DNA of 29,490 nucleotides from a virus. Its lineage: Duplodnaviria > Caudoviricetes. Location: the IMG/VR virus record IMGVR_UViG_3300043410_001082, positions 1 to 29,490 of that record. One strand, given 5' to 3'. A program made the translations under genes and the position numbers. The first letter of the stretch is position 1. Each line of letters begins with the position of its first letter. Below the pieces are notes generated by a model, which made no database searches, was not told the origin of the DNA, and saw nothing but the letters and a program-made list of their open reading frames with translations. Positions 4,116 to 25,902 of this stretch are shown piece by piece.

Positions 4116-4421
4116 TTAAACTACTTCAAACTTCCTAGGCTCGGTAGTAATTCCGCAAGATTGATGATATTCCTCAACCCTAGCCATATGATTTACAACA
4201 CCCAGATTGTTTGAATATACGTTAAACTGTTCTTCACTATCCCAAGTATTTTCGATAGTTAGGGTTAAACCCTCGACGCCCTTAATGACCCTACGCAGTT
4301 CCATCATGTATATTTGTTGACAGTCGATGTATTGCTGAGAATACTTGCCAAAAAACCACTGGATATGCCAAGGCACTCCTAAATTTGGGCGTGTATAAAC
4401 GGTAGTTACTTTAAATGCCAT
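4116..4421 (-). CDS. Hypothetical protein, possible dimeric alpha/beta barrel (ABM/EthD-like)
   Basis: 101 aa. TWDSEEQF resembles the W-x-S-x-E motif of this fold; the fold call is weak. Confidence 0.55.
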   Translation of the reverse strand: MAFKVTTVYTRPNLGVPWHIQWFFGKYSQQYIDCQQIYMMELRRVIKGVEGLTLTIENTWDSEEQFNVYSNNLGVVNHMARVEEYHQSCGITTEPRKFEVV

Positions 4422-4448
4422 AATAGTTCCTGTAAGATATTACTGCGT

Positions 4449-5237
4449 TTATTTATCACCAATTCTGTGAATGCTGTCCTTGCTGCAAGAACGCAATATC
4501 TCGTCAGTTTCGTCGGTGCGAACTGCTGTTAGCACAAAGATAGTCCTAGGAACTCGACTCATGTTAACTGTTCCGTGAGGAACGTTGAGTGTATCAAAGA
4601 TATGAATATCTCCCGCTTTCCAACCCGTGTGTACATAGTTGCCGTATTGCATAAGTTGACCGGGCTCGTAATCTTGTAAGTGAATAATCATCCTAGTTAA
4701 CTTATGCGGTGCTGCTGGATATCTGTGCCATAACTTATCAATGTGCATAGGAAATGTTTGTCCAGGCATCTGAGTATGAATCCTAGTCCTACAACGTTTT
4801 AGTTTCCAGTAATCTGCCATTTGTTTTAGAACAGGAATATCTGTAATTTTAGGTTCTGGGACAACTTGTGTAAATTCAATGCCGCCGAACTTGTCTCTGT
4901 CATATTCTTCTTGTCCGTGCATTGGACTAATTCCACCCGGAAATCCGGGGTGAGCCTGTTTCGTGGTTAATTCATTCCATCCAACATTTTTTGATTCTTG
5001 TTCAAGCCAGGGTAATAATTCTTCTACAGACTTTCGTTGTTCTTCAGTCCATTCGAATCTTCCCAATAGATTAAAGTACTCTCCTTCCGGATCTTCCTTC
5101 CATTTATCAAAGTGATAGTTGCAAAACTTTTCCTTGAGGTACTCATAGTTGCTTTCATAATCTACAGCGTCCTGATATTGAAAGTCTAGGGGTATAGATT
5201 TAAACTTTGCACGATCTTCGTATTTTTTCGGATCCAT
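4449..5237 (-). CDS. Fe(II)/2OG-dependent oxygenase (AspH-like)
   Basis: PMHID (HxD) ... FDTLNVPHGTVN...PR: metal triad plus distal Arg. Confidence 0.8.
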   Translation of the reverse strand: MDPKKYEDRAKFKSIPLDFQYQDAVDYESNYEYLKEKFCNYHFDKWKEDPEGEYFNLLGRFEWTEEQRKSVEELLPWLEQESKNVGWNELTTKQAHPGFPGGISPMHGQEEYDRDKFGGIEFTQVVPEPKITDIPVLKQMADYWKLKRCRTRIHTQMPGQTFPMHIDKLWHRYPAAPHKLTRMIIHLQDYEPGQLMQYGNYVHTGWKAGDIHIFDTLNVPHGTVNMSRVPRTIFVLTAVRTDETDEILRSCSKDSIHRIGDK

Positions 5238-5425
5238 TAATTTTCCTTTGCTTCATAACCAATAACAATAAGCCAGTCAACTAAGTCTGTCTCATCCTCG
5301 TCGAGAGTCCCGTTTATTCCATCATACGAATAAAGGACCTTACACCTAGGACGAGTTGCGTCTTCGGGAGGAAGAACTCCTTCCTTCCAGTTTCTTGTTT
5401 TAAATTTAGATGTATCAATAGCCAT
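5237..5425 (-). CDS. Small hypothetical protein
   Basis: 62 aa. TAATG overlap with the downstream oxygenase and 4 nt from the TctC stop. Confidence 0.7.
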   Translation of the reverse strand: MAIDTSKFKTRNWKEGVLPPEDATRPRCKVLYSYDGINGTLDEDETDLVDWLIVIGYEAKEN

Positions 5426-5429
5426 TTAT

Positions 5430-6362
5430 TTACTTCATTTCAATATTGTATTTTTTGAAGCCATCAGCTTGGTGTTGTATCATACTGTTGACATGATCAG
5501 CATTTCCGATATCTTTACCAATGAATGCTTTTTGCAATGCTTCGTCTGTCTCTTTTAAACTTAGATATTCTTTCCATATTGCGGTCCAGGCTTTAATAAT
5601 TCTCTCATCAGTACCAGGTGGTAGACCTACAAAGAAAATTTCACCATGCCTCCAGTTAGGGATACGTTTTTTAATATCGAGTGTTCCTGGCGGCAATGTA
5701 TTAGGGTTTGATGCAAATCCAAAAACAATCTTAACTTTTCCAGACTCTAATAACGGTTTAACAGTACTCATAGGACTAAACGCAAACGGCAGATGCCCTC
5801 CTACAACATCTCTTGCAGAATCTATACTGGTTTTATAAGGGACCAATAACGGCACAGAAGCATTAACAGCGTTAGAAAATTGATGAGCCATAAGAACATT
5901 AGATACCGCGTGCCAGCCTATTTTAATATCTGTATCTCCTGCCTTTAAACCTTTAACAAAATCTTCATACTTTTCGTATTTGTTTCCAGGTTGAGTGATA
6001 ATAACATTAGCAACACCGCCAGTGGATATAATTGGTTCAATTACTTTTTGGCCTAATCTTTTTTCTGCTAGCCAAGAATTGCTAGTTGAGTTCATCATAA
6101 TAACAGATCCGTCCTTAGGACCTGATAAAAATTCTTGTGCAGCAATTGAACTGTTAGCTCCGGGCTTGTATGAGATTTGCATCTGTACTCCCTTGCTAGC
6201 CATAAATTTTTCAAACGGTTGGTATTGTACATCAACAATTCCTCCGGGTCCGTATGGATTTAAAAATGTAATATTCTTAGGGATTTCTTGATACGGGTTA
6301 GCTCCTGCAGATAGAATAGTGAACGATGCAACAAATGCTGCCATTATTTTTATTAATGTCAT
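5430..6362 (-). CDS. Bug/TctC family tripartite tricarboxylate transporter substrate-binding protein
   Basis: Signal peptide; PYGPGGIVD, KPGANSSIA, DG, VPYK and VVGGH motifs. Confidence 0.88.
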   Translation of the reverse strand: MTLIKIMAAFVASFTILSAGANPYQEIPKNITFLNPYGPGGIVDVQYQPFEKFMASKGVQMQISYKPGANSSIAAQEFLSGPKDGSVIMMNSTSNSWLAEKRLGQKVIEPIISTGGVANVIITQPGNKYEKYEDFVKGLKAGDTDIKIGWHAVSNVLMAHQFSNAVNASVPLLVPYKTSIDSARDVVGGHLPFAFSPMSTVKPLLESGKVKIVFGFASNPNTLPPGTLDIKKRIPNWRHGEIFFVGLPPGTDERIIKAWTAIWKEYLSLKETDEALQKAFIGKDIGNADHVNSMIQHQADGFKKYNIEMK

Positions 6363-6385
6363 GGTTTTCCTTGATTGTATAACGG

Positions 6386-6391
6386 TATTTA
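6386..6391 (-). promoter_or_regulatory. TAAATA late-promoter-like motif
   Basis: TAAATACCGTT upstream of the tctC-like Shine-Dalgarno; the identical 11-mer occurs at 7571-7581. Confidence 0.55.
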
Positions 6392-7570
6392 ATTGAGATC
6401 CAACAAGTGAAATAATTTTGTATGTATGGGTCTGAGTAGTTTAACGCGATCGCTAATCACTGTAAGATAATTATTGTGTATGCCGTCTGCTACGTGTACC
6501 ATGGCAGTTTCCCAATTCTTTCTTAGTTGCTCCATTTCGGGATGTTCGAATACCCAGAAGAACCAATCACTTCTCGAAATGTTAGGTTTTCCTGCTTGGA
6601 ATTTATTTAAATCCCAGGATTCTTTATACAAAATCCTTTTATGTATTTCTCCCTGGTCCGTAAATTGTTTTAGATAATCAGCATCAGACATTCCTGATCT
6701 TTCCGTAATTACATTTTGATTCTCTTTGTTGTGTTTAAACCAAAGTGCAGATTGGTATGCTTGTTCTACCGGCAGCATTGGAATTTCCGGACTCCAGTAA
6801 AATGCCTCTACACGTTCCTCTAATTTCTGTCGAGGCATAATAGCAGTGTCCCAAACACCATCCATAAATTGAAACCAAATAGCATTATCTTTAAAATATA
6901 AAACTGGTTTTTCAATTCCAAAAATGTGTCCAATATTATTAGACTTTACTTGACTCATTGCTGTTTCTATCTTTGGATCAACGTGCCACAGCGTACTAGC
7001 TAGCCCGCCTCTTGCAATGCTGGTAAATTTTATACGAGATTCGATATGATCAGCATCTAATAATCGATCAGTAAGATTCGATCCGTAGTCAACTATGTTT
7101 ATTTTAATTTCCGGATGATACTGTTTGAGATAGTCTAATGTGGGTTTAATAGCAAAGTCCCATTCGCTTGGACTATTCCTAGCAGATTTGTCCTGGACGT
7201 TAGGAGTATAGAACTTTCCGTCCACTAATGGCTTTGGCCATCTTACTGTAACTTCGTCTAATTTTATGTTGTTAGATAAAAACGTATGTAATATGTTATG
7301 GCTATCAGAGCCTCCAGAATAATGTAAAACTAGATAGCTGTACTTGTCTCGTAATTGTTGGGCACGGTCTTTGTAAAGTGTTGTTAACGGAATTTTTCCT
7401 AGAAGAGATTTATCTATTCCATCCCATACATGGTTGTGAAAATAATAATAGACTTTTGGATTTCCGTTACTACTAGCATATTGCAATGCTTCTAGTTTTG
7501 AAGTAAACGGAATTTTGTTAACAAACCAGCAACCGTATTTGCTGTTTAAAATTGGAGGAACATTATTCAC
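6389..7570 (-). CDS. PP-loop (adenine nucleotide alpha hydrolase superfamily) ATP pyrophosphatase, subtype A
   Basis: LHYSGGSDSHNIL; paralog of 8032-9192. Start moved from 7654 to the in-frame GTG at 7570, 5 nt after TAAATA, which removes the divergent overlap. Confidence 0.8.
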   Translation of the reverse strand: MNNVPPILNSKYGCWFVNKIPFTSKLEALQYASSNGNPKVYYYFHNHVWDGIDKSLLGKIPLTTLYKDRAQQLRDKYSYLVLHYSGGSDSHNILHTFLSNNIKLDEVTVRWPKPLVDGKFYTPNVQDKSARNSPSEWDFAIKPTLDYLKQYHPEIKINIVDYGSNLTDRLLDADHIESRIKFTSIARGGLASTLWHVDPKIETAMSQVKSNNIGHIFGIEKPVLYFKDNAIWFQFMDGVWDTAIMPRQKLEERVEAFYWSPEIPMLPVEQAYQSALWFKHNKENQNVITERSGMSDADYLKQFTDQGEIHKRILYKESWDLNKFQAGKPNISRSDWFFWVFEHPEMEQLRKNWETAMVHVADGIHNNYLTVISDRVKLLRPIHTKLFHLLDLN

Positions 7571-7575
7571 AACGG

Positions 7576-7604
7576 TATTTATGGATTGCATTTTAAGATA
7601 AATA
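7576..7604. promoter_or_regulatory. Divergent TAAATA pair
   Basis: Minus strand 7576-7581 and plus strand 7599-7604. Confidence 0.6.
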
Positions 7605-7622
7605 TTTTCTTTAAGGATTAGT

Positions 7623-8087
7623 ATGCAATATACAGAGACACAATCTCGAAGCATAGCAAAGACACTGACTATTCGAGTATTATTCTCACTTAGTCACTTG
7701 ATTAACGGATTTATTGTATCCGGATCTTGGATTATTGGTGCTCAAATTTTAGGTGTAGCAGCAGTTATTAATATGTGCTTGCATTGGTTACACGAACGAG
7801 TTTGGAATTGGGCACAGTGGAATCGCAAGCCCGGCGACACAAATATGTTTGTTGACGGCCAACCCAGAACAATTAGCAAGTCGATTACCTGGCGAATTTT
7901 AATTACATTTAATAATTTTATGATCCCGTACCTAATGACCGGCTCTTGGAAAGCTGCCGCAGCGTTTCTAACCATAGCAACGTTTATGAACATTGCAATT
8001 TACTACTTACACGAACGTGCCTGGAATAGGGTTACTTGGGGTAAGTCCGTATCGGACCAACCAGATACGTCTGAGACAGAGAAATAA
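7623..8087 (+). CDS. Tandem DUF2061 membrane protein
   Basis: Two repeats: RSIAKTLTIR...HERVWNWAQW and RTISKSITWR...HERAWNRVTWG. Confidence 0.85.
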   Translation: MQYTETQSRSIAKTLTIRVLFSLSHLINGFIVSGSWIIGAQILGVAAVINMCLHWLHERVWNWAQWNRKPGDTNMFVDGQPRTISKSITWRILITFNNFMIPYLMTGSWKAAAAFLTIATFMNIAIYYLHERAWNRVTWGKSVSDQPDTSETEK

Positions 8088-9192
8088 GAGCGTCTGCTGT
8101 TCCGTCCTTGGCTTTCTTTACGTAAGGGCCAAGATTACTTTCTAAATACTGTAAGCCTTCCTGCCAAACATGGAAGGCTTTTGTATCTGCGTATCCGTTA
8201 TAGAACCAAGCATCAAACTCACTATACCAATCTTTAACTGCCTTGTCAGCCTGATACCAATTATTATCCCAGGTTGTGTATAACAGCCCTCGAAGTATAC
8301 GCTCGTGTATAAATCTATAACTTTCTGGGGTGAAGTTTTCTTTTGCCCACAATGTTTGATTTTCCGGAAACGCTTCTAACCAATGTTTAATAACGTGTGC
8401 TTGTTTGGTTAAAATCCTAAGGGCGTCAGGACTCCAGTAGAAGTACTCGACTGCGCTGTTTGTGTAATCTCTAATATGTTCTGCCACAGTAACCATGTTA
8501 GCAGCACGATCGTGAAATACAATATAAAGGTTTCCATTGTCGATGTATGTCCTTGGTTTTTCTAAACCTAATACTAACGCAATTCTTTTATCTTTATCAA
8601 ACTGCTTACGAATAGTATCAAAGTGTGTGTAATTAAATCGTGTGGCTCCTGCAATGTTTACCTGTTCTCGTTTTTCCATAATCCAACTAGCATCGCCTAC
8701 ATCTTCGAGCATATTGAATAAATGATCTGTTAAATCTAACACAGTGATTTTAGTTTTAGGAATTTGATGTTCAACTTCTTTTAGACGAGGTAAAGTTTGC
8801 AGTGCGTATTCAGCAGCAGCATTTTTATTCTCTTTGTTATTGGGATCTAGTACAGTAAATTTTTCTGTAGCTTTGGTCATTGTGTTAACAACGATTTCGT
8901 CAATATGTAAATTTTGTCTAATAAACGCCATTAGGATATTATGACTATCTGCGCCACCACTGTAGCTCAACATAATATAATCATACTTGTCTCGAAGTTC
9001 TCTAGCACGAGCATCATACAATTGATCCAATGTTTCTACAGGTTCTAAGGCCCAATTATTTTCTTTGAATGCACGATTGTTAAAGTTCCAAGCAACTGGT
9101 TGTTTTACTTCCAGTGAATACATAAATGCTTTGATTTTGGAATCAAAGTGTTGACCGTTACAAATATAGTAGCCTAATTTTTTATCTAACAT
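8032..9192 (-). CDS. PP-loop ATP pyrophosphatase, subtype A
   Basis: LSYSGGADSHNIL; LRDKY, G[IL]EKP and FYWSP blocks shared with 6389-7570. Confidence 0.82.
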   Translation of the reverse strand: MLDKKLGYYICNGQHFDSKIKAFMYSLEVKQPVAWNFNNRAFKENNWALEPVETLDQLYDARARELRDKYDYIMLSYSGGADSHNILMAFIRQNLHIDEIVVNTMTKATEKFTVLDPNNKENKNAAAEYALQTLPRLKEVEHQIPKTKITVLDLTDHLFNMLEDVGDASWIMEKREQVNIAGATRFNYTHFDTIRKQFDKDKRIALVLGLEKPRTYIDNGNLYIVFHDRAANMVTVAEHIRDYTNSAVEYFYWSPDALRILTKQAHVIKHWLEAFPENQTLWAKENFTPESYRFIHERILRGLLYTTWDNNWYQADKAVKDWYSEFDAWFYNGYADTKAFHVWQEGLQYLESNLGPYVKKAKDGTADALISLSQTYLVGPIRTYPK

Positions 9193-9253: not shown

Positions 9254-10168
9254 ATGATTCACGGATTTGAAAATGGCAAGTGGTATATTGATTACAAAAC
9301 TTGTACACGCCCTGTCGGCAATATGCGACAAGAATCAGATAAACGAGCTGTAGACATTGCAAACTCCAGTGATAAGATAATGATTAGTTTAAGTTCCGGC
9401 ATTGATAGTCAAAGTGTCCTACATAGTTTTGTTACGCAAGACATCCCTGTTGAAACAGCGTTTTTGTATCTACCCGGATACAACGACAACGAATATAACA
9501 ATTTAAAAATCATCGACAAGAAGTATGGTATCAAAACTCACATTGTCGATTTTGATCCGTATGATTATCAAGAAGATCTAGAAGCCGAAGCGGCAGCTAC
9601 AGGCATTCAGGTAAATTCTATAATTCAAAAGAAGTTTTTAAGTTTACTCCCAGACGATTACGATTTTGTTTCAATAACTCACGACCCGTATGTTGTGATC
9701 TCTATCAAAGAACGAGCCTCATATTGGTTTATGGGATACAACACTCCCGAAATTGCAAGACAACGAGCATTTGAATTATTGCCTCGCAAAGGTAAGTTTC
9801 ATTTTTACGGAGACACCAGCGAATTCCTTGCGAGCATACTAGACGAAGAAATCTTGCACTCTTGTATGTACTCCTGGCCTTACTTTGCATTCAACGGTCT
9901 AAGTAAAGAAGGTGTACAATTGCAAACTGTGGATAGGTGGGATTATTATATCAAGCCTTTAATATACGGTAAGTATTGGAGAGACGAACTAATCTATTTT
10001 CCTAAGTATGCAGGATTTGAAAAAGTGCCGTTTCTGAAAGCACCGCTAGATTATAATAAACATGCGATGAAGACCCCTTTCAGAGATTTTATTAAGTTTT
10101 TAAAATCTTATACAGGCGAAACACGCAGATTCTATGAAAATATCTCTTATACAGAAGAGAACAAGTAA
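9254..10168 (+). CDS. PP-loop ATP pyrophosphatase, subtype B
   Basis: ISLSSGIDSQ variant PP-loop; C-terminal KYAGFE echoes KTHGFE of 16029-16946. Confidence 0.72.
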   Translation: MIHGFENGKWYIDYKTCTRPVGNMRQESDKRAVDIANSSDKIMISLSSGIDSQSVLHSFVTQDIPVETAFLYLPGYNDNEYNNLKIIDKKYGIKTHIVDFDPYDYQEDLEAEAAATGIQVNSIIQKKFLSLLPDDYDFVSITHDPYVVISIKERASYWFMGYNTPEIARQRAFELLPRKGKFHFYGDTSEFLASILDEEILHSCMYSWPYFAFNGLSKEGVQLQTVDRWDYYIKPLIYGKYWRDELIYFPKYAGFEKVPFLKAPLDYNKHAMKTPFRDFIKFLKSYTGETRRFYENISYTEENK

Positions 10169-10968
10169 TTTCTAAAATGTTGTTTTGCTGGTTCTAGATA
10201 GTCGTTATTGAATTCAGTTAACAGTTCTGCCTGAGCTTTATCTTGCCCCCAGGCAGTTTCCCATATCCTACTATTGGTTTCCCACAATTCATATACGAAC
10301 GCTGGGTCTCGATATTTGTAAACAACAACGTCACTAGAACCATTTCCTAAGTCGTTTGCAACAGTAATGAACAAAGCCCCTTCTTGCCATTCTATCATAG
10401 TATTTGGATACACAGCAAGCCAGGCTGCGCCGTAACCAGTAGGACCAGGGACTAGTTGTAAACTACCCCAATCATAATAATGCCAATCAACTTCACGAAT
10501 GTCTGGCATGCCAAGCTCGTCATACACACCTGCGTGAACTAGTTCAATATGATCTACGTCAAGAAATAAATCCATTATGTTATTGGCAGATGCTTTAACA
10601 TGATCAACTCTGGTTTCCACTAAACGCATATTTTTAGTATTAATAAAGTTTGCTTCCGGAACTGAGATAGGTTTTGTGAATAACAAATTATTCCATTCAT
10701 ACACCGGTTCATTGGTTAGACCCTTGGTATTTTTACAAGCTGTTAGTCCCGAACCTAGTGGGTTTCCGTTTATATCAAAACTCCAACCGTGGTAGGGACA
10801 TACCCTAGCGCCAGTTCCTTTCTCAACACTTAGTAAACTCTTCTGGTGCGGACAAACGTTAGAAATGATTTGTAGCGAGTCAGAATTCGCAAGAACTTTT
10901 TTGTTATTAAACTGCTTCAATGGTACATATTCGTTCTCTCGAATATCACTTACATGACCTACAAACAT
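10147..10968 (-). CDS. Compact Rieske non-heme iron oxygenase alpha subunit
   Basis: CPH...CPYHGW [2Fe-2S] ligands; DVDHIELVH (DxxHxxxxH) and a distal QD for the mononuclear Fe site. Confidence 0.9.
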   Translation of the reverse strand: MFVGHVSDIRENEYVPLKQFNNKKVLANSDSLQIISNVCPHQKSLLSVEKGTGARVCPYHGWSFDINGNPLGSGLTACKNTKGLTNEPVYEWNNLLFTKPISVPEANFINTKNMRLVETRVDHVKASANNIMDLFLDVDHIELVHAGVYDELGMPDIREVDWHYYDWGSLQLVPGPTGYGAAWLAVYPNTMIEWQEGALFITVANDLGNGSSDVVVYKYRDPAFVYELWETNSRIWETAWGQDKAQAELLTEFNNDYLEPAKQHFRNYLFSSV

Positions 10969-11861
10969 TATTTTAAATCCTTTATTAAATCGTTTATTAT
11001 ATCTTTTACTGGACGAATTTCTTTAATATTATTAAGAGCCCGCCCGGCAAATAAAATACCTGTGTCTGGACTTTTTATACCTTGTACCAATGAACCTGTA
11101 TTGTTGTGATCGTCTTCTGCTATAGGTTTAAAGATTAGCGCATTTTGATTTGCTTTTCCAAATCGTACAACATCAGCATATGTAGACTCTATCATTTTTT
11201 GTTTGCTTTCGTTGCTAATAGGGCTTTCTTCTGCTGCTGCAATTAAAGTTCCAACAGCAACAGCAATGCACCCAAGGTCCAAGTATTTCATAACATCTGC
11301 TGAAGTAGAAATACCACCACTCATAACAACAGGCAATCCTACATATTTTTCCTGTACCTTTTTTAATTCGTCGTCGATGCTTAAATGATCTATGCCCCGC
11401 CCGGCACCTGCATTGCTTTTTAAAATTACACCATCTATTAACAGGTCAGCGTTTCTAGATGTCAACGCCTTAAGAAAAATTTTAATGCCGGATTCCTGTA
11501 ACGACTGTATTTCGTTTTTAAAGAACTCCCAGACTTCGCCGTTAACAATTGTTTTATCGTCTATAATTTCTAATAGTTCTATCTGATTATCTAAAAGAAT
11601 TTTTTGAACATTCTTGTTAAACATATCAGAAGTTAATACACTTACTAGAATCTTGTTTGATCCTGTTTGATTTTTAAATTCTTTTAGTGCAGCATCAAAC
11701 AAATCTAACCGCAGTCTGTCTATTACAAAGTACGTGTATAGTGACAAGCTAGGTAAGATTCCTGCGTTATGACAGGCTATTGCTAATTTTAAATCAGACA
11801 CCTTATTCATTGGTGCTGCAATAATCGGATAACGTGAACCGAATAGGTCTGTGTAGTTCAT
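10968..11861 (-). CDS. Nitronate monooxygenase / FabK-like FMN TIM-barrel oxidoreductase
   Basis: PIIAAPM, AG, SGGI, GCIAVAVGT and EES motifs. Start placed at ATG 11861, 5 nt after TAAATA. TAATG-coupled to the Rieske gene. Confidence 0.85.
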   Translation of the reverse strand: MNYTDLFGSRYPIIAAPMNKVSDLKLAIACHNAGILPSLSLYTYFVIDRLRLDLFDAALKEFKNQTGSNKILVSVLTSDMFNKNVQKILLDNQIELLEIIDDKTIVNGEVWEFFKNEIQSLQESGIKIFLKALTSRNADLLIDGVILKSNAGAGRGIDHLSIDDELKKVQEKYVGLPVVMSGGISTSADVMKYLDLGCIAVAVGTLIAAAEESPISNESKQKMIESTYADVVRFGKANQNALIFKPIAEDDHNNTGSLVQGIKSPDTGILFAGRALNNIKEIRPVKDIINDLIKDLK

Positions 11862-11905: not shown

Positions 11906-12349
11906 ATGATCACATTTAAAACTCAAAAAGGAATTGAAGTAGTATTGACACACGAGCCTTGTACTGAAGAAAACGAATATTTTGTTAAGAAATTAACAGA
12001 ACTCAATTCTGCAAACCACGGTAGGTCTATAAAAAATTCATTGCCTGATGTACACGGAGTAATATGGGCCAAAATAAACAACGAGGTTGTTGGGGCATTA
12101 TTCTACGACCTAGAACGATCTAAAGACAGTAGTGGGGTTTGGGTAGTGTTGGCATATGTAGATACAGAATTTCGCCAGCAAGGAATTTACAAAGAACTGC
12201 ATAATTTCTTATCCTCTATAACTAAAGATTTAGGACGCAATCGTGTTGTTACCTGGATGAATGTTAACAATCAAAAAATGTTTCAAATCGGAAAATCAGT
12301 AGGATACAAAGGAGTTATGGTTATTATGGAACGAAGATTAGATGACTAG
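11906..12349 (+). CDS. GNAT family N-acyltransferase
   Basis: YVDTEFRQQGIY motif A and N..M......GY motif B. Start moved to the in-frame ATG at 11906. Confidence 0.85.
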   Translation: MITFKTQKGIEVVLTHEPCTEENEYFVKKLTELNSANHGRSIKNSLPDVHGVIWAKINNEVVGALFYDLERSKDSSGVWVVLAYVDTEFRQQGIYKELHNFLSSITKDLGRNRVVTWMNVNNQKMFQIGKSVGYKGVMVIMERRLDD

Positions 12350-12839: not shown

Positions 12840-12859
12840 GACCCAGAGGTCCTATTTTT
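12830..12859. terminator. Bidirectional intrinsic terminator
   Basis: A7-TAGGACC-CAGA-GGTCCTA-T5 between convergent genes. Confidence 0.88.
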
Positions 12860-12872: not shown

Positions 12873-13829
12873 TTAAGATACTGCGTATGCAGGAACAACG
12901 TAGCTTACACCGTTTACTTTAATATTAAAGTATTTTGTAGGTGTTGCTGGAAGAGCACTTGCTCCGCCTGCTGCACCAACAGTTGTTTGTTCAGCAACAA
13001 CAAAATCCACAGTACCGGTACCGTTTGGATCTAATTCAATATCTGCGTTAGAAACAATAGTTGAAATTTTATTGTTATCGATAGTGATAGTGTTGTTGGT
13101 AATACCATAAAGTGCTTTTAACAAACCTGTAGAATCAATAGTTACTCTAACTATAGATGTGCCTGCTCCGTTGTTAGTTGCAAAGTCAATTTTAGACTTC
13201 ATGCTAGTGTTACTAACAGCGGCATCGTCAACAGTACAAGTTATCCTACCACCGATTAAATATTGACTGTCGGCGTATCCTACAAAAGTTAATTCGGATA
13301 ATTCGTCTCCGTTGGAAACTTTTGTTGGGGTTTGGATCGTTCCTCTTGCTCTAGAAAATGCAACGTTTCTCGCATCGACAGTTTCGTGTGCCTGTGTTAC
13401 AGAGAACAAGTTAGTAGTATTACTGTAAACGTTGCTAAGGATATTAATAGAGCTAAATTGGCTCACACCTGAAGTAGCATCAACGTTTCCGTAGTACATG
13501 TTTGTAGTATGGTCTAACAACAAAACATCCAAGCTGTCGTATAAGGATCCTTTAACATCAGCTACAATTGTTGCAGGTAACGCTGCACTTAGGGCTCTAG
13601 TTGTTGGGTTGTAGGTAAACGATATGTTAGTATGCGTACCATCTGCAATAGACTCAGCAGCAGCATCTTTAGCTTCTTCGTTAGAATATGACGTGGCAAC
13701 TACACCACCTGCATCTGTACCGTTACCAATGTGGAGGCTTCCGGTTTGTGTATTGTAAATAATCTCGCCCACTAATGGCGTGATAGAGTTGATTTCAGCG
13801 GTATTGCCTCTGCGAATCTGTAAGGGCAT
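12873..13829 (-). CDS. Putative virion fibre/structural protein with Mtd_N-like N-terminus
   Basis: LQIRRG....P..GE..Y.T.T..L.IG.G N-terminal motif; T/S/G/A/N-rich beta body; GGAG Shine-Dalgarno. Confidence 0.75.
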   Translation of the reverse strand: MPLQIRRGNTAEINSITPLVGEIIYNTQTGSLHIGNGTDAGGVVATSYSNEEAKDAAAESIADGTHTNISFTYNPTTRALSAALPATIVADVKGSLYDSLDVLLLDHTTNMYYGNVDATSGVSQFSSINILSNVYSNTTNLFSVTQAHETVDARNVAFSRARGTIQTPTKVSNGDELSELTFVGYADSQYLIGGRITCTVDDAAVSNTSMKSKIDFATNNGAGTSIVRVTIDSTGLLKALYGITNNTITIDNNKISTIVSNADIELDPNGTGTVDFVVAEQTTVGAAGGASALPATPTKYFNIKVNGVSYVVPAYAVS

Positions 13830-13924: not shown

Positions 13925-14464
13925 ATGACCAATAATTTTGTGTATAAGGTGATAGATATCCCAGAGCTTGATGCTATTCATAATGAAGTTAGGAGTTATG
14001 CCCTATCGCAGATTCCTAATTATACAGAAGCATTTAATCTGGTAAATTTACCAGAAATGATGAATGCTTGTCCTAAAACATTTGAATGGATGTTGAATGC
14101 TGGATTAATGCCTAGGGTTTGCGCTCTTATAATACAGCCGCCCGGTGCTGATCTACGAGGAACGCACACAGATACACAAGTAAACGATCTTGCATTAAAC
14201 TTTAGTATTAAAAATACCAAAAATACTTATACAGGATTTTACAAAGTTGTAAGCGGAGAAGTCATTAGAAAGACGTTGCCTAACGGTGTAGAATGGGACA
14301 ATTTTGAACAGGCAGAATTAGAAGAAATTGCAAGAATTGATTTAGAAAAGCCCACTATTATCAATACCAAAGTTCCACATGCAGTCCATAACCCAACACT
14401 AAATCCTAGAATATCTATAAGTTTTAGGTTTGTTAAAGATCCGTATCACTTAGTTAGTGCCTGA
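13925..14464 (+). CDS. Small Fe(II)/2OG-type oxygenase
   Basis: HTD...ALNF...PTIINTKVPHAVHN....RISISFRF. Confidence 0.8.
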   Translation: MTNNFVYKVIDIPELDAIHNEVRSYALSQIPNYTEAFNLVNLPEMMNACPKTFEWMLNAGLMPRVCALIIQPPGADLRGTHTDTQVNDLALNFSIKNTKNTYTGFYKVVSGEVIRKTLPNGVEWDNFEQAELEEIARIDLEKPTIINTKVPHAVHNPTLNPRISISFRFVKDPYHLVSA

Positions 14465-15033
14465 TCTAATATAGATTTTACTGAAAGGTAATCCGGATTG
14501 TCTAGGAATCTCACGCTTAACACGTGACGCCATTTGGTATTAGCTAGGTTGTTTACTCGATGCCATTCGTTTGTGTTAACCAATGTTGGGTTTTCTAGTA
14601 ATATTCTTGCTGTGCTTGATAATAATGTTGCTTCACTTCTGTCTTTAAGCAAACGAATAGATGTGTGTTCTAATTCTAATAAGCGTCCTTCTACAGGACC
14701 ATCCAACCATTCCATTATTCCCTGATCGGTGTTAGCTATTGGCACGTTGAAAGCACATAACCTGTCCGATCCATCTTTATGAATAGAACCAACAGCTCCT
14801 GGTTCTGCTGAAAATAACTGAACGTGACTAATTCTAACCTGAAACAAATCTTTAATCCATTGAGGTAATTCATGTCCTAAAACACGATTAACAATGTTGT
14901 GTCGCTCTCGCGTTAGTTTTGATACTTCTAAAGCCTTGTTTTCGTTTACAAGATGTGAACCCCATTCCTGAAGTTTTCGAAACGTATCACTCCATTCATA
15001 GGTTGTATATAAATGAGGTGTTAAGGTTTCCAT
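14446..15033 (-). CDS. Small Fe(II)/2OG-type oxygenase
   Basis: IHKDG...AFNVP...PTLVNTNEWHRVNN.....WRHVLSVRF. Confidence 0.8.
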   Translation of the reverse strand: METLTPHLYTTYEWSDTFRKLQEWGSHLVNENKALEVSKLTRERHNIVNRVLGHELPQWIKDLFQVRISHVQLFSAEPGAVGSIHKDGSDRLCAFNVPIANTDQGIMEWLDGPVEGRLLELEHTSIRLLKDRSEATLLSSTARILLENPTLVNTNEWHRVNNLANTKWRHVLSVRFLDNPDYLSVKSILDQALTK

Positions 15034-15743
15034 AGTAAAGCATATTCCTTGTATTTTTCAGCAGAGTCTAGAATTAGCTGTCTAGTTTTTTGTTTTACAC
15101 GTTCCATTCCGGCAGCATTGGGCTGCAAGAAGCAAGCAATTCTAGGAGAGTACTTTGTGATAAATGGACTATGAATGGCCCTGACATTGTTTACGTAGAA
15201 GCCGCATCTTGGGGTGGGCAACTTTCCTATTAAAACTTCATCTCTGAATATGTGATTTTTAAAATTTAGATCCTTGGAAATAAATGCTTTCATTTCTTCA
15301 GTTCTAGATGTATGAGGTAAAACAGTTTGTCTTAACAACAATGGATTTTCGTCACCTGCATCGTTTCTAAGATAAAATCTTAATCCCGATTCGTCGTTAT
15401 CTGCATGCCAGAATCCTAGTCCAGTAACATTTGGACGCATAGGTAACAATGTAATTGAATTTAGATCCTCTGGATCTAATCCGTATGCTTCGCTCATGTA
15501 CCTTGCTAATTCTGGGAATCGAAATTCAAACCCATCGCGCCACCCAACTTGTCCAAATTTAACAAATGCTAAATCCCAGGGATATTGATCTCCGAATGTT
15601 GCCTGCGTTCTTTTTGATCCAGGGACTTCGTTTAAGATGGACTGCGGATAAATGTCTTTCATCCATTGTTCAACTGCTCCAACATCAATATCTGGGACAG
15701 GAGGAATGTCTAGGGGTGTGTATAAAATGTCAATTGGTTCCAT
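15021..15743 (-). CDS. Divergent Fe(II)/2OG-type oxygenase
   Basis: FWHAD...FYVNNVRAIH........R; ATG at 15743. Confidence 0.68.
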   Translation of the reverse strand: MEPIDILYTPLDIPPVPDIDVGAVEQWMKDIYPQSILNEVPGSKRTQATFGDQYPWDLAFVKFGQVGWRDGFEFRFPELARYMSEAYGLDPEDLNSITLLPMRPNVTGLGFWHADNDESGLRFYLRNDAGDENPLLLRQTVLPHTSRTEEMKAFISKDLNFKNHIFRDEVLIGKLPTPRCGFYVNNVRAIHSPFITKYSPRIACFLQPNAAGMERVKQKTRQLILDSAEKYKEYALLWKP

Positions 15744-15780
15744 CAATATTACCGAGAAAAGTTATCTAGTCTGATAATTA

Positions 15781-15807: not shown

Positions 15808-16032
15808 ATGAATATAGAAGACAAGCTAAATTGGCTCAAACAAACTCTAATAACTGAGTTTGGAAAGGAACCGTCTGACATAACCCCTGCCACTCTAATA
15901 GATGATCTAGACATAGACTCTCTGGATTTAGTCGAACTTCAAATGAAGTATGAAGATGACATTAAAGTAGAAGTACCAACAGTCGACTATGAACTAGTTA
16001 CCGTTGAAGATTTATTGAAGTTACTGCCTTGA
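15808..16032 (+). CDS. Acyl carrier protein
   Basis: 74 aa, acidic; DLDIDSLDLVEL phosphopantetheine motif; C-terminal TVEDL. Confidence 0.92.
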   Translation: MNIEDKLNWLKQTLITEFGKEPSDITPATLIDDLDIDSLDLVELQMKYEDDIKVEVPTVDYELVTVEDLLKLLP

Positions 16033-16946
16033 CAAATTACACGCTGAATAATCATCTACAATATTCAATAGGTGGTAGAGAATTTGGATATCGAGAACAG
16101 CCCTGGGAACCATACAAAGTTACAATGGGTGCTGTCGATCCAGACATTTATAGAACCAGTAGCTGGCGTGAAGAGTTAAAGCGTACAGCCGATTCAGTAC
16201 ACAAAGAATTCGGTAAAGACCTAGTGGTATTCTTGTCCGGTGGTACTGATAGCGAGATTGTTGTTAGAAATTTTTTAGAAATTGGTGTAAAGCCTAAATG
16301 CGCCATTATTAAATTCGATGGCAATTATAACGATTACGATGTTTTAGAAGCTCAGAAGATTGCCGTTGAACTTGATTTAGACTTAGAAGTTCTAAACTTT
16401 GATGTTATAGATTTTCACATGTCTGGACAGGCAAAAGAATTCGGCGCCACAATTCAATGTCCGCAAGTTACATACCTAACAGTATACCATAATATATTAA
16501 AGTTAGGTGCGCCGGCGGTAATGGGAGGGGAACTTCTCATTTCTAAGAAGATTAAAAAAAATCCCGAATGGTATTATACCTTCCGTGAGTTAGAAGATGC
16601 TAGTGCTATGAGGTTTAGCAAACTCTACAACCTTCCGTTAGTTAACGAGTGGTTCAGTTACACTCCGGAAATGGTATTGTATTACCTAGAACATCCAACG
16701 ATACAAGACTTAGTCAACAATAAGATTGAATACAAGTTGTCGTCTGTTAGTTCTAAGAATAGAATCCTTCAGGGACTGTATCCAGATACTAGACGTAAGT
16801 TAAAAACACACGGGTTTGAAAGACTAAGAGCATTCAACTTTGAAAGCTATCACGAAATTTGGAGAGGCTTTGTCAAGAGAACAGAGTCCACTATTGATGG
16901 TATCATAATCGACGATGCACTAAAACAGTTAAGAAGCAAACTATGA
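16029..16946 (+). CDS. PP-loop ATP pyrophosphatase, subtype B
   Basis: VFLSGGTDSE; TTG start overlapping the ACP stop (TTGA). Confidence 0.8.
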   Translation: MTNYTLNNHLQYSIGGREFGYREQPWEPYKVTMGAVDPDIYRTSSWREELKRTADSVHKEFGKDLVVFLSGGTDSEIVVRNFLEIGVKPKCAIIKFDGNYNDYDVLEAQKIAVELDLDLEVLNFDVIDFHMSGQAKEFGATIQCPQVTYLTVYHNILKLGAPAVMGGELLISKKIKKNPEWYYTFRELEDASAMRFSKLYNLPLVNEWFSYTPEMVLYYLEHPTIQDLVNNKIEYKLSSVSSKNRILQGLYPDTRRKLKTHGFERLRAFNFESYHEIWRGFVKRTESTIDGIIIDDALKQLRSKL

Positions 16947-17545
16947 GAGTAGAACAATTAACCAGCGAGCATAAAGAAGCAATCAAACCCTTGTTTGGTG
17001 TTAAAAAATGGATGGGCGTATCCCACGAAGACAATGCGTTCATCAGCAGTTCCTACGACTTTGAAAACACCTATTATGTAAACTTTTGTAACACGTATCT
17101 CTCGGGTCTAAACTCCTATCACGCATTCGGGGCATTTAATGACCAGGGAGAAGTAATAGGGTTTATTGGATTCTACGAATCATCTGACAATGCCGAATGG
17201 TATTGGACACACGTTTTAACTAAAGATGCTGCCGGAAAGAAAGTCATACCTGCTATCTTAGATGAGGTCATAGATTATAACGAGAAAAATGGTAGATTAA
17301 AATTCTACTCTATGTGGAACGCTAAATACGCCAGGGTATATAGACGACTAGCATTTAGCGAAAAGAACAATGAACGTTACGACTCGTTCGATGAATATCT
17401 AGTCCCAGCTAAACACAGAGTTCTTTACACAATGCCTTGGATGGTATTGTATGGCAGAATTTTATTACCTGTAGATTCGTTAGTTAGATGTACATTTTTA
17501 AAACAAAAGTATAGAGAAAACATTTTGATTGCAGGAAAGACATGA
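16943..17545 (+). CDS. Putative GNAT-fold acyltransferase
   Basis: FGAF...GEVIGF hairpin followed by a strand-helix pattern; degenerate motif A; 4-nt overlaps with both neighbours. Confidence 0.55.
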   Translation: MRVEQLTSEHKEAIKPLFGVKKWMGVSHEDNAFISSSYDFENTYYVNFCNTYLSGLNSYHAFGAFNDQGEVIGFIGFYESSDNAEWYWTHVLTKDAAGKKVIPAILDEVIDYNEKNGRLKFYSMWNAKYARVYRRLAFSEKNNERYDSFDEYLVPAKHRVLYTMPWMVLYGRILLPVDSLVRCTFLKQKYRENILIAGKT

Positions 17546-18330
17546 AATTAAATTACAAATACTTTGCCTTGGTTGTCGCTCCAATGATTTCACTAGGTCT
17601 GTTTGGCGTGTTCAACATGATAGCTAATGCTGAATATGCTTGGCTAGCATTAACTTTTGTATTTTGGATATTGCTGAGCGGGCTAGGAATTGCTGTAGGG
17701 TTCCACAGGATCTACAGCCACCGCACATACGAATTAAAACCCTGGTTAGACAACATTATTTTAGCCTGTGGTACTCTGGCCTGCCAGAGCAGTAGTTTAA
17801 CGTGGGTAGCAACGCATATAGGATATCACCATCCGCATAGCGACACCGAAAAAGATCCTCATACTCCTACCAAAGGAATATTATATGCGTTTCTCGGTTG
17901 GACATTCTTTGTTAACGCACAAACTATTAATCACAAATATGCAGTTAAGTTGATGAGAAACAAAGCCCATATGTTTGCTCACAAGCATTATCATAAACTA
18001 GTTTGGGGATTTGTGTTGGCTTTCCTGATTGTATTTGGATGGAAGGCTTTAATTTATGGATACTGTATTGCTGCTATGATCAGTATTCTAACTGATAACC
18101 TTGTTAATGTATTAGGACATTCACCAAAGCTAGGTTATAGAAACTTCGACACAAAGGATAATAGTTCTAATTTTCTTCCATTAGGATATCTAGGTTGGGG
18201 TCAGGGATGGCATAACAATCATCACCAATTTCCTGCAAGGTTCGATTTTGGAATTAAATCGTGGGAATGGGATCCTTGTAAGATCTTTATTCCGTTATTA
18301 AAGATGGGTTCAACTAAATCTTCGGAATAA
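17542..18330 (+). CDS. Membrane fatty-acyl desaturase (delta-9-like)
   Basis: His boxes HRIYSH, HIGYHH and WHNNHH; HSDT.KDPH.P; transmembrane segments. Confidence 0.93.
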   Translation: MKLNYKYFALVVAPMISLGLFGVFNMIANAEYAWLALTFVFWILLSGLGIAVGFHRIYSHRTYELKPWLDNIILACGTLACQSSSLTWVATHIGYHHPHSDTEKDPHTPTKGILYAFLGWTFFVNAQTINHKYAVKLMRNKAHMFAHKHYHKLVWGFVLAFLIVFGWKALIYGYCIAAMISILTDNLVNVLGHSPKLGYRNFDTKDNSSNFLPLGYLGWGQGWHNNHHQFPARFDFGIKSWEWDPCKIFIPLLKMGSTKSSE

Positions 18331-18891
18331 CATTTTATTATTCCAGTCACGCTTCCCGTTTTCGGTTAGTAGTTTCAAGGCAACAAATTGCTTACAACTA
18401 TCCGGAACGGGATTTTCTATGCCGCAAACATCATACTTACCATTTAACATTATAAAATTTGTATCAGGTAATGTTTCGTTTATGTAAGAAATATACTTGT
18501 TAAAAGACTGTAATCCGTGTTCTCTAGACATAAACACAGACGACACACCTAATTGTCTTGCGGCATCGAGCTGAATCGGTAGCATATACTTGGTGTACAA
18601 ATCAGCAGTAAGTAGATTAGCCCCGTGTCTATACTGCGGCGATATGTAAAATCTAGAAAGAACACGAGCTGTATTGTTGCTCCAACGATCAGGAGAAAAC
18701 TGTAATCCGCTAAATGCTACAACATTATTGTCAGATACTAGCATAGTAAACGATTTAAATTTATCAAAACTTATCGATGTATAATTTTCTTTAAGAAGAT
18801 CGTTGCTATTCTGTATGTTACCAATTTCGTTGGCCCACAAATGATCTTGGGACCTGTCCTTGCACATATCAATGATTAGTATATTTTTCAC
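18310..18891 (-). CDS. Putative GNAT-fold acyltransferase
   Basis: VVAFSG...RVLSRFYISPQYR...AARQLGVSSVF pattern; GTG start 7 nt after TAAATA. Confidence 0.6.
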   Translation of the reverse strand: MKNILIIDMCKDRSQDHLWANEIGNIQNSNDLLKENYTSISFDKFKSFTMLVSDNNVVAFSGLQFSPDRWSNNTARVLSRFYISPQYRHGANLLTADLYTKYMLPIQLDAARQLGVSSVFMSREHGLQSFNKYISYINETLPDTNFIMLNGKYDVCGIENPVPDSCKQFVALKLLTENGKRDWNNKMLFRRFS

Positions 18892-18898
18892 AGTGTGA

Positions 18899-18913
18899 TA
18901 TTTACTATAAATA
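18899..18913. promoter_or_regulatory. Divergent (TA)TAAATA pair
   Basis: Minus strand 18899-18904 and plus-strand TATAAATA 18906-18913, filling a 27-nt intergenic gap. Confidence 0.7.
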
Positions 18914-18918
18914 TTTCT

Positions 18919-19467
18919 ATGAGTGTAAATTATTTTCCTTTCAACTTATCTAATTTAGAATTAATACAAAACGAGTTATATGCAAAACACGGGCACCTTG
19001 CAACGGGTGACAAACTGCAAACATTAAAGGTTGATTGGACTCCTGAAAACTTTTTATCTCTTTACACACCTATTCAGGATTTAGTTATTAAGCACGGCAC
19101 TGTTGTAAGGACTGCTAGATTTTTCTATACGCCGCCTGGTGTGGAATTGGAGCCGCATGTTGATGGTAAAGAAATAACAGAAAAATATTGGGCATTAAAT
19201 ATTCCAATTAATGTTCCGTCGGATAACCATTATCAGGAATGGTTTGATTATACAGGTGAAATGAGATTTGATAGTAATCAGATTTATACTGATTCAATTA
19301 AGCCCAAAGAGCCAGAAAAGCTAGTGTTGGTTGATCGACTAGTTTTATTGTCTTCACACTTTGTAAAAGTAGGAACCTTTCACAAAGTGGCAAATAACTC
19401 GTCTAAGGGAAGATTTATTCTGTCTATTAGATTTACTAATCCTAGCTTTATAGCGAATTTAAAATAG
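18919..19467 (+). CDS. Small Fe(II)/2OG-type oxygenase
   Basis: PHVDG...ALNIP...FHKVAN....RFILSIRF; ATG at 18919. Confidence 0.8.
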   Translation: MSVNYFPFNLSNLELIQNELYAKHGHLATGDKLQTLKVDWTPENFLSLYTPIQDLVIKHGTVVRTARFFYTPPGVELEPHVDGKEITEKYWALNIPINVPSDNHYQEWFDYTGEMRFDSNQIYTDSIKPKEPEKLVLVDRLVLLSSHFVKVGTFHKVANNSSKGRFILSIRFTNPSFIANLK

Positions 19468-20332
19468 ATTTATTTTCAACCCATTCATTATCATTGAGAT
19501 GATCAACGTTGGCCCTGAAGAACTTACGTTCCTGGTCTTCTGCAATTTCTAGTTTAGTTCTGTTGTGAACAAACGGCCAATTATCATAAATGACTATATC
19601 GTACAAGCCCCATTTGTGTGTATACAGTAAGTCGGGCTGAGATTCAAAGAACTTTAAATACGGTCCTAGCACTGGCTTGCATTCTTTTCTTTCACCGTTA
19701 ACTGTAACACTTTTGATCCAGGCGTCTGTTATCTTCTTTTCCGGATCGCAAAAATAATTTAATCTCAAAGATTTCCTGTTTGTGTAAGGATTTATTTTGA
19801 TAAAATCGTAATGGTCTACTTCAGTATTCTCTTTATACCAGCTTTGTTGTTGAATCTTAATGTTAGGTATTTGAGATTTTAAATCAGATGGTAGGCTATT
19901 AATCCCTTCTTCGATGTTCATCCAGGTGGTTAGGCCAGAATTAGGATCTGGATTGTTAACCATCCACAACGAACGAATAGGAAACGGTTTAAAAGAACGA
20001 TTAGGAATGTCAGAATGCCAGGCCATTTCGCCTCTGCCTAATCTTTTGCTGATCTTATTACTAATAGGGCTAACTGTAAAAATGTTATTTTTTATAGGTA
20101 CCAGTTCAGTAGCTTCGTTGCTGTATTTGTAATCAGTACTTGACCAGGGCTTTCCGAAGTTCATTAGAAACTTAACATAATCTGCCTTAGTAAAATTCAT
20201 GTTCTTGAAAACAATAAGGTTACGTTCGTACAATAACTTACGCCATTCGTCGGGATTAGTTTTAAAAAAGTCTAAAGGATTATCAAACTCTACAGTTGTG
20301 CCCCATTTATTGTGTATGTTATTATGTTTCAT
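19448..20332 (-). CDS. TauD/TfdA family dioxygenase
   Basis: LIVFKN, WHSD and HKW...DIVIYDN...VHNR motifs. Confidence 0.88.
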   Translation of the reverse strand: MKHNNIHNKWGTTVEFDNPLDFFKTNPDEWRKLLYERNLIVFKNMNFTKADYVKFLMNFGKPWSSTDYKYSNEATELVPIKNNIFTVSPISNKISKRLGRGEMAWHSDIPNRSFKPFPIRSLWMVNNPDPNSGLTTWMNIEEGINSLPSDLKSQIPNIKIQQQSWYKENTEVDHYDFIKINPYTNRKSLRLNYFCDPEKKITDAWIKSVTVNGERKECKPVLGPYLKFFESQPDLLYTHKWGLYDIVIYDNWPFVHNRTKLEIAEDQERKFFRANVDHLNDNEWVENKSILNSL

Positions 20333-20937
20333 GTTAGCCTTGCATCAAAAATTAAGTTAATACGATCCTTAGAAGAATCATTTTTCAACCAATGAGGTAC
20401 GTGATTATTAACCCAATACAATTTTCCCTGTTCTAATAATACATCTTCATCTCGAATATGAAATATGTTCTTAGTATCTTCCTGATCGATAACAAAATGA
20501 AACCTATCATAGTAATCAAAGTATGCACCAGAGTCGGTGTGCAGATCGATCCCTGAGTTAGCGTAGTGCTTACTAAAGAATATACGACCAAACTCTACCT
20601 TTGATGCTCCGGTTTCTAACAACGCTTGCTCTAGCCAGCTTCGCATTTCCTTGAATATAGGAAAAGAATTTAGGATATTTGTGTCTCGAATGGTTGTAAC
20701 CTGGTTCCAGTCTTGTGTTGTTTTAACCAATGCAGCATTAGCTACTGGTTCTCTAAGCGCAACCATGCAAGTGTTTTGTAATGCTTTAGTTACTCGCTGA
20801 CGAGTGGTGTTAATTGCCCAAAGAAATTGTATTTCTGGTTTTGTAAAAAACTCAGCGATTCGGTTTGCTAGATCGTGATTTGATGATATGTAATGTGAAT
20901 TACTTTCAATTGAAGTAAGTTTATACGGGGAGAACAT
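20329..20937 (-). CDS. Aspartyl/asparaginyl beta-hydroxylase-like 2OG oxygenase
   Basis: IDLHTD.G...RFH...G.LYWVNNHVPH...N....RINLIFD. Start moved to ATG 20937 because the track start lies inside the terminator. Confidence 0.85.
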   Translation of the reverse strand: MFSPYKLTSIESNSHYISSNHDLANRIAEFFTKPEIQFLWAINTTRQRVTKALQNTCMVALREPVANAALVKTTQDWNQVTTIRDTNILNSFPIFKEMRSWLEQALLETGASKVEFGRIFFSKHYANSGIDLHTDSGAYFDYYDRFHFVIDQEDTKNIFHIRDEDVLLEQGKLYWVNNHVPHWLKNDSSKDRINLIFDARLT

Positions 20938-25901: not shown

Positions 25902-25902
25902 A

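Follow-up and report, generated by a model that had tools for sequence, protein, structure and literature searches.

A recurrent island of putative acyl- and amide-forming enzymes in jumbo phages

What a tailed phage could make with ligases, acyltransferases, a desaturase and a set of oxygenases encoded side by side is the question raised by positions 4116-20937 of the IMG/VR virus record IMGVR_UViG_3300043410_001082 (Duplodnaviria; Caudoviricetes). The whole record, a fragment of 29,490 bp with an estimated completeness of 9%, was analyzed and is referred to below as the window; the segment in question, which contains 24 intact open reading frames (ORFs), is referred to as the island. An initial annotation had read the island as one dedicated pathway built around a virion fibre gene. 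Our analysis revealed two conserved modules joined to a changeable set of oxygenases; dozens of related phages share the modules. The island is real and widespread, and it is undescribed in the literature searched, which took in few subscription papers and no supplements (that of PMC7824862 included) and contained no description of module 1.

Two conserved modules and a variable set of oxygenases

Four ORFs of the island encode PP-loop ligases, designated PPa-PPd. Two surveys of relatives were performed, one of PPd (80 of 84 confirmed loci, forming 60 groups at 90%, 54 of them with complete loci) and one of PPb (79 loci and the window, forming 52 groups). Genes of the relatives were called with our own ORF caller, and their labels come from profiles built on these same loci.

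Around PPd, the order GNAT-(ACP)-PPd-GNAT b-desaturase (module 1; ACP, acyl carrier protein) is nearly fixed. GNAT b follows PPd in 55 of 57 groups, and at most four genes from PPd there is a desaturase in 53 of 54 groups, a second GNAT in 50 and an ACP in 25. With the whole locus taken into account, 48 of these 54 groups contain an oxygenase. The genes of the module mostly overlap by 4 nt, and their median identity across the 60 groups is 44-56%. The PPb survey revealed the same coupling, with desaturase and PPd-family genes together in 18 of the 19 desaturase-bearing groups. A phosphopantetheinyl transferase gene occurs three and six genes away in 2 of 60 groups, and in one locus (L163, 7234-8001) a GNAT and an ACP are encoded in a single reading frame (257 aa) directly before PPd. 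The variable genes around module 1 (96 of 200 unlabelled neighbour clusters were scanned) encode oxygenases, radical SAM enzymes, further desaturases and methyltransferases, with sugar enzymes in a minority. A lipopolysaccharide-type sugar cluster was considered for the window and rejected, since no glycosyltransferase is present among its ORFs.

Module 2 is comprised of the PPb/PPc ligase pair with a FabK/NMO enzyme, TctC and DUF2061. PPb adjoins PPc in 23 of 29 groups (shuffled mean 7.5), NMO in 15 of 28 (5.5), TctC in 15 of 26 (6.7) and DUF2061 in 11 of 14 (3.0). The cupins have no preferred adjacency to PPb (8, versus 9.0 with shuffled labels), the genes are arranged in different orders and copy numbers from one relative to the next, and the number of oxygenases per locus ranges from 0 to 11. 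In L032, L059 and L015, the island contains TctC together with TctA, or a DctP binding protein, i.e. carboxylate-uptake genes carried by phages. TctC shares only 22-27% identity with plasmid proteins of several genera.

Comparison with the relative G001 showed 82-97% identity in the ligase-pair region, 68% for NMO and 58% for TctC; the module 1 proteins are 38-64% identical and rearranged, and the flanking ThyX, RNA ligase, HD and Hc1 proteins are 83-98% identical. Synonymous sites are near saturation throughout, and the overall pattern suggests purifying selection combined with cassette exchange. An extra gene is inserted in the island of G001 (L002, 15462-16541, minus strand) and of one other phage (L063, 6998-8044); from its motifs, we take it to be a muconate cycloisomerase-like member of the enolase superfamily.

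Origin of the island

The island is phage DNA, an intact accessory block carried by an uncultured, T4-like giant phage of freshwater. The genes on either side are usual ones for jumbo phages (ThyX, RNA ligase, kinase, HD and phosphatase), and a second contig is 99-100% identical to the window over the genes compared. G001 (146 kb, T4-like) has the same flanks and carries its island in the same position; a scan of 116 of the 223 genes called in it revealed a T4 gp9/10 baseplate protein as well as CsgF/G, DnaK and ribonucleotide reductase. A complete record of 354 kb, G002, reached through a PPb of 59% identity, contains portal, terminase, sheath and DNA polymerase genes (105 of 493 genes scanned), the terminase sharing 53% identity with its counterpart in PA5oct/Paride-type phages. 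Atlas clusters are 99-100% viral, and the narrow GTDB pattern scans described below confirmed no cellular homologue. The near-identical contig and the synteny with G001 make a chimeric or cellular origin unlikely, so the phage origin given in the initial annotation holds. The G+C content of the island (34-40%, versus 40-45% in the flanks) and the absence of capsid and terminase genes from the window might be taken as signs of cellular or chimeric DNA miscalled as viral; set against the relatives described above, we consider such an error barely conceivable.

The PP-loop ligases

Profile comparison placed PPa, PPb, PPc and PPd in one family, and searches of PDB with the sequences of single PP-loop proteins gave nothing. 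An AlphaFold2 model of PPb (pLDDT 92, from a 119-row alignment) matched asparagine synthetase B (AsnB) with Z 11.4 over 277-284 residues (root-mean-square deviation 5.1-5.2), as well as beta-lactam synthetase (BLS; Z 9.8), TsnB9 (Z 9.7) and CarA (Z 8.5); the top Foldseek matches were CarA and BLS. An AsnB synthetase-domain fold is therefore predicted for PPb by the model, and for PPa, PPc and PPd through the profile link only. As in the PP-loop superfamily, an SGGxDS loop follows the first strand of a Rossmann-like domain; it is invariant in two ligase alignments (A1 and A6), and PPc often has SSG instead. An invariant Lys (K317 in PPb, K259 in PPd) probably corresponds to the catalytic Lys of AsnB and BLS. 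Residue 3 of the PPb model aligns with AsnB residue ~120, and the PP-loop proteins (304-421 aa) do not contain the N-terminal glutaminase domain with Cys1, so that the amine would have to come from outside. The phage ligases resemble AsnB, BLS, CarA and TsnB9 in the predicted fold over ~280 residues, the SGGxDS loop and, probably, the invariant C-terminal Lys, but they are only 7-13% identical to this group, lack the N-terminal ~120 residues of AsnB and form four paralogous subfamilies, which in the present searches were found only in phages.

The ligase families are large, 856 and 731 clusters of homologues having been counted for two of them. All 12 structural neighbours of PPb among viral models (E <= 0.001) are proteins of uncultured Caudovirales, and neither PPb nor PPd had a match in 50,697 GenBank phages. 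In GTDB, 40 and 44 pattern matches were obtained and none was confirmed, the patterns being narrow enough for distant cellular relatives to escape. In a phylogeny of 149 sequences, PPb, PPc and PPd formed separate groups, each with members from different phages (support 0.999, 1.0 and 0.315, respectively, the PPd group being weakly supported), and the sequences binned as PPa did not form a single clade. The idea that the four ligases arose by recent duplication was rejected on the basis of the former groups. A role in QueC/deazaguanine synthesis was also rejected, given that QueC matches are weak and that in G001 the QueC-like and PTPS genes are distinct genes at other positions.

Acyl-handling enzymes and oxygenases

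Annotation of the 24 ORFs with hidden Markov models, together with structure prediction for PPb and GNAT b, gave families in agreement with the initial list of parts, all of which are present by Pfam, profiles, alignments or these folds: eight HxD...H oxygenases, a Rieske oxygenase, four PP-loop proteins, three GNATs, an ACP, a desaturase, an NMO/FabK enzyme, TctC and DUF2061. Pfam matched TctC, DUF2061 (present twice in the same protein), Rieske, NMO, PP-binding (the ACP), FA_desaturase, TauD, Asp_Arg_Hydrox and Mtd_N, and gave weak matches for two GNAT ORFs. No match in Pfam, PHROG or NCBIfam was obtained for any of the four PP-loop ORFs, for six of the small HxD ORFs or for the third GNAT, and the same three collections revealed no synthase of a non-ribosomal peptide synthetase or polyketide synthase (NRPS/PKS) scaffold and no AMP-binding acyl ligase among the 24 ORFs.

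The ACP has the expected size (about 75 aa), acidity and DSL serine. The desaturase has His boxes at residues 55, 92 and 224 and hydrophobic segments at 6, 32 and 152; it scores 80 bits against the DesA model, whose cut-off is 400. The model of GNAT b has a GNAT fold (TM 0.56 to SpeG), with no acyl-ACP-dependent GNAT of the OlsB, FeeM or LuxI type among the Foldseek matches listed; OlsB and OlsA were likewise without a match in Pfam and NCBIfam. The family profile of GNAT c matches PaiA (E 3e-4). All eight oxygenase genes have a conserved HxD...H...R in alignments of relatives. A 2-oxoglutarate (2OG)-dependent beta-helix enzyme is predicted by Pfam for two of them and by a profile link to the AspH-like gene for four small ones, and is suggested by weak profile links for the remaining two.

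Transcription of the island

T4-type late promoters have a TATAAATA-like consensus, and a motif resembling it stands before island starts. Of the 17 matches to [AT]TAAATA in the island, 13 are followed by an in-frame start at a distance of 4-34 nt (null 5.4%, p 7e-14); the flanks have none (6.6 expected). In G002, the strict motif precedes 6 of 22 structural/lysis genes versus 1 of 20 replication/metabolism genes, and TAAATA, counted by eye, precedes 12 of 22 versus 2 of 20 (p 0.003), several of the "structural" genes being labelled from position and size only. Among relatives, TAAATA is found before the lead gene of module 1 in 21 of 58 cases and before PPb in 16 of 55, versus 2 of 174 and 3 of 165 windows placed within genes, a control that flatters the enrichment because intergenic DNA is richer in AT. 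From the resemblance of the motif to the T4 consensus, it is likely that the island is transcribed late in infection. The late timing proposed initially is supported by the placement of the motif before island starts and before structural genes of G002.

Comparison with known systems

Cassettes of the JamA/B/C type combine a ligase, a desaturase and an ACP, and in aminolipid synthesis of the OlsB type acyl transfer by a GNAT is followed by 2OG hydroxylation. The island shares with these systems the pairing of an ACP with a membrane desaturase and the combination of GNATs with 2OG enzymes, but its ligase is AsnB-like, and not an AMP-binding acyl ligase as in JamABC.

Among phages, a predicted secondary-metabolite cluster of a jumbo cyanophage, for which surface decoration or a metabolite was proposed (Iyer et al. 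2021, PMC7824862), likewise has several 2OG/cupin hydroxylases; its core consists of a carbamoyltransferase, a halogenase and a methylase, and the words "desaturase" and "PP-loop" do not occur in the main text of that article. The cyanophage Delta9 desaturases vFAD, described as helpers of membrane fluidity (Roitman et al., PMC5776448), are also phage-encoded membrane enzymes, but the desaturase of the island is locked in an operon with a ligase, GNATs and an ACP. The cultured Pelagibacter phage Mosig (MT647606, L195) carries a tailoring block of ~17 kb beside its tail fibre genes, which resembles the island in its desaturase, a GNAT c relative (E 8e-14), three cupins, TauD, radical SAM enzyme and TAAATA motifs. 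It differs in its richness in aminotransferase and carbamoyltransferase genes, its position beside tail fibres and the absence of PP-loop and ACP genes from the 24.5 kb read. The accessible text of the genome announcement (PMC7892664) does not discuss this block.

Proposed function and alternative explanations

It is likely that acyl/amide chemistry is the theme of the island, as first proposed. Acyl chains are pointed to by the ACP, FabK/NMO, desaturase and GNATs, amide bonds by the ligases, and the envelope by the membrane or periplasmic parts (desaturase, DUF2061 and TctC). We tentatively propose, at somewhat less than an even chance, that an amide-linked, desaturated and hydroxylated acyl compound is synthesized late at the membrane of the infected cell. 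In this scheme (i) a GNAT of the c family would move an acyl chain from the phage ACP, or from a host ACP in phages without their own, to an amine, (ii) the glutaminase-less AsnB-like ligases would activate carboxylates by adenylation for coupling to free amines, (iii) GNAT b would attach a second acyl group and (iv) the membrane desaturase and the 2OG and Rieske oxygenases would diversify the product, with TctC likely aiding the import of a carboxylate co-substrate. If phages exchange module 1 and oxygenases with one another, their products would differ, as an arms race predicts.

Several observations weigh against this proposal. The ACP is missing from 29 of 54 module 1 loci and from the island of G001, and the correlation between the pairwise identities of PPd, GNAT b and desaturase is no more than moderate (rho 0.30-0.51 across 48 loci). 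The best folds for GNAT b are generic SpeG/PaiA acetyltransferases and not acyl-ACP specialists; the TM-scores of PPb to CarA/BLS are only 0.25-0.37, and an AsnB-like fold, here a modelled one, would by itself be no proof of function. The total of [AT]TAAATA matches in the island (17, versus 19.4 expected) is not above chance, the motif precedes only 2 of 9 island-type genes tested in G002, and late expression suits virion decoration at least equally. Modules 1 and 2 occur together in only 17 of 54 loci, and G002, which has module 2 genes, gave no match to GNAT b or the desaturase of module 1; a single product is therefore doubtful. With the families of G002 scattered over several islets, two separable modules and variable oxygenases, the idea of one dedicated pathway was not borne out. 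The families are nevertheless linked in relatives, and do not occur there as single, unlinked homologues.

The idea, put forward initially, that the enzymes act on the virion, adding acyl, amide and hydroxyl groups to its fibres, its capsid or the glycans on them while particles are assembled, is bound up with the fibre-like gene within the island, whose 318-aa product has an Mtd_N domain of 36 residues. The related Mtd_N family abuts or lies in the island in 7 of 52 PPb groups, which by a rough estimate about equals chance for two to four Mtd_N genes per 340 kb, and it is near module 1 in 2 of 54 groups, both from the window's own clade. In the near-complete G002 and G003, Mtd_N genes are ~18 kb or more from any PP-loop gene, and G007, with eight PP-loop matches, has no Mtd_N match. 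Constant linkage to a structural target gene was thus not found, and the fibre gene is not the organizing principle of the island, contrary to the first description: the linked enzymes recur across phages, and adjacency to fibre genes is usually absent. A virion link is possible because 5-7 further groups have PPb among fibre-like genes (identified partly by eye) with a prolyl-hydroxylase-type oxygenase, and because in Mosig the desaturase, GNAT c relative, cupins and TauD directly precede tail fibre genes, although without a PP-loop match. The promoter motif shared with structural genes and the sugar enzymes flanking a minority of module 1 loci (an epimerase in 8 and GT1 in 6 of 60 groups) also fit decoration; the membrane desaturase, DUF2061 and TctC point rather to a membrane or small-molecule substrate. 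On balance, we regard decoration as possible, if doubtful. Rather doubtful, too, is a version uniting both ideas, in which a phage-only carrier-protein line, without NRPS/PKS, would use AsnB-like ligases and GNATs to build a lipid amide late in infection, attached to or loaded onto progeny virions, with desaturase/oxygenase cassettes serving as chemical serotypes.

The shuffled gene order, the fluctuating oxygenases, the indifferent placement of cupins, the promoter motif carried separately by 13 genes and the scattering in G002 would all be expected of a recombination hotspot that gathers unrelated late accessory functions (membrane desaturation, hydroxylation and amidation) with no shared product, and stand-alone phage desaturases are described as acting on host membrane lipids (PMC5776448). 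Such a hotspot is unlikely in view of module 1, an almost invariant overlapping operon at the divergence seen across 60 groups, and of the co-occurrence of desaturase and PPd-family genes. A released amphiphilic metal chelator or signal, based on citrate or polyamines and freed at lysis or bound to progeny, would have its model in the acylated citrate siderophores. The recurrent TctC, TctA and DctP genes, the AspH/TauD hydroxylases, the presence of TsnB9, a hydroxamate-forming AsnB homologue, among the top folds and the polyamine acetyltransferases as best GNAT matches are in keeping with this. We consider it very improbable, as Pfam, PHROG and NCBIfam revealed no IucA/C-type synthetase, amine N-hydroxylase, exporter or receptor in the island, and only 1 of the 60 module 1 groups contains a gene that was labelled, by eye, as SpeD-like.

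Organization of the island and its surroundings

The features of the island are summarized in Table 1. Strands alternate within it. The bounding by terminators noted initially was upheld: one family of bidirectional terminator-like hairpins occurs at both ends and in the middle, at the same three sites in G001, while a general terminator scan (8 sites, versus 11.6 expected) was uninformative. Position 20937 is the likely true start of the AspH-type gene and hence the right end of the island.

Table 1. Features of the island and its boundaries in the window.
Feature	Position	Strand	Evidence or remark
Bidirectional terminator-like hairpin, left boundary	4074..4102 (approximate)	.	Fold -15.7/-17.0 kcal/mol; same site in G001
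101-aa protein, recurrent island family	4116..4421	-	Family in 22/52 loci groups; late-promoter motif upstream
HxD...H cupin-type oxygenase, weakly linked	4449..5237	-	Relatives' alignment; profile E 0.0015
62-aa protein	5237..5425	-	ORF call, relatives
TctC/Bug periplasmic carboxylate-binding protein, hydrophobic N-terminus, module 2	5430..6362	-	PF03401 E 4e-7
PP-loop AsnB-like ligase PPa	6389..7570	-	ORF to 7654, likely start GTG 7570; 29% identity to PPb
DUF2061 membrane protein, module 2	7623..8087	+	PF09834 E 1e-25
PP-loop AsnB-like ligase PPb, module 2 core	8032..9192	-	Fold match; dN/dS 0.019 versus G001
PP-loop AsnB-like protein PPc, SSGIDS motif, PPb partner	9254..10168	+	Adjoins PPb in 23/29 loci groups holding both
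Rieske oxygenase alpha-type protein	10147..10968	-	PF00355 E 1e-10; weak NCBIfam GbcA match
FMN-dependent NMO/FabK-family enzyme	10968..11861	-	PF03060 E 1e-15; TIGR03151 62.5 bits, far under cut-off; likely start 11861
GNAT a	11906..12349	+	PF00583 E 3e-5; likely start 11906
Small HxD...H cupin oxygenase	12342..12839	+	Profiles, relatives' alignment
Bidirectional terminator-like hairpin splitting the island	12832..12859	.	Fold; same place in G001
Mtd_N-capped fibre-like protein	12873..13829	-	PF18454 aa 4-39; own late-promoter motif
Small HxD...H cupin oxygenase	13925..14464	+	Profiles, relatives' alignment
Small HxD...H cupin oxygenase	14446..15033	-	Profiles, relatives' alignment
HxD...H oxygenase-like protein, weakly linked	15021..15746	-	Relatives' alignment, profile
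Acyl carrier protein, DSL serine motif, module 1	15808..16032	+	PF00550 E 9e-9; NCBIfam ACP matches
PP-loop AsnB-like ligase PPd, module 1 core	16029..16946	+	Profile family
GNAT b, module 1, overlaps PPd stop	16943..17545	+	After PPd in 55/57 loci groups; GNAT fold
Membrane fatty-acid desaturase, three His boxes, module 1	17542..18330	+	PF00487 E 8e-18
GNAT c, divergent member of family usually preceding ACP	18310..18891	-	Family profile
Small HxD...H cupin oxygenase	18919..19467	+	Likely start 18919; profiles, alignment
TauD-family dioxygenase	19448..20332	-	PF02668 E 7e-14
AspH-type beta-hydroxylase	20329..20937	-	PF05118 E 2e-7
Terminator-like hairpin ending upstream flank operon, right boundary	20978..21003 (approximate)	-	Same place in G001

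The right flank (21455-26581) encodes RNA ligase, HD hydrolase, phosphoesterase and kinase. Many relatives have genes for phosphatases, phosphoesterases and kinases next to their islands (9-17 of 52 groups), which suggests a shared insertion hotspot. On the left, a gene at 3497-4060 (plus strand) encodes a signal-peptide protein that resembles, by eye and with no family match, a small outer-membrane beta-barrel; it adjoins the left end of the island in the window, G001 and L012. Just outside the island, at 3255-3365 (minus strand), we identified a tRNA-like RNA of ~111 nt missed by ARAGORN and Rfam. It has a 7-bp acceptor stem with ACCA and a tRNA-type D loop and T arm, and its anticodon arm is replaced by a longer hairpin of variable sequence with no 7-nt loop. 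The 24-nt 3' part is exactly matched in 47 viral stretches, and the RNA is possibly a tRNA mimic.

Elsewhere in G001 (L099, 6676-8613; L101, 1835-10838), a second desaturase gene is located near a GNAT gene, far from the island, and the same regions encode a haem oxygenase and a bilin reductase, CsgF/CsgG, FecR and a CHASE2 cyclase; hemO/bilin-reductase genes resembling these are treated in PMC11480375. In G002 (47-54 kb and 86-89 kb), radical SAM genes form a tandem array of five and PPd-family genes one of three, the latter flanked by two Rieske genes.

Significance

The ligase families described here show strong conservation and seem to be restricted to jumbo phages that have not been cultured, and they have neither a family model nor a described function. 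Module 1 consists of only four or five small genes. Should the product of the modules prove to be a lipid amide, giant phages of freshwater would run their own natural-product chemistry late in infection; if such an amide were loaded onto virions, tailed phages would bear a lipid-like coat chemistry.

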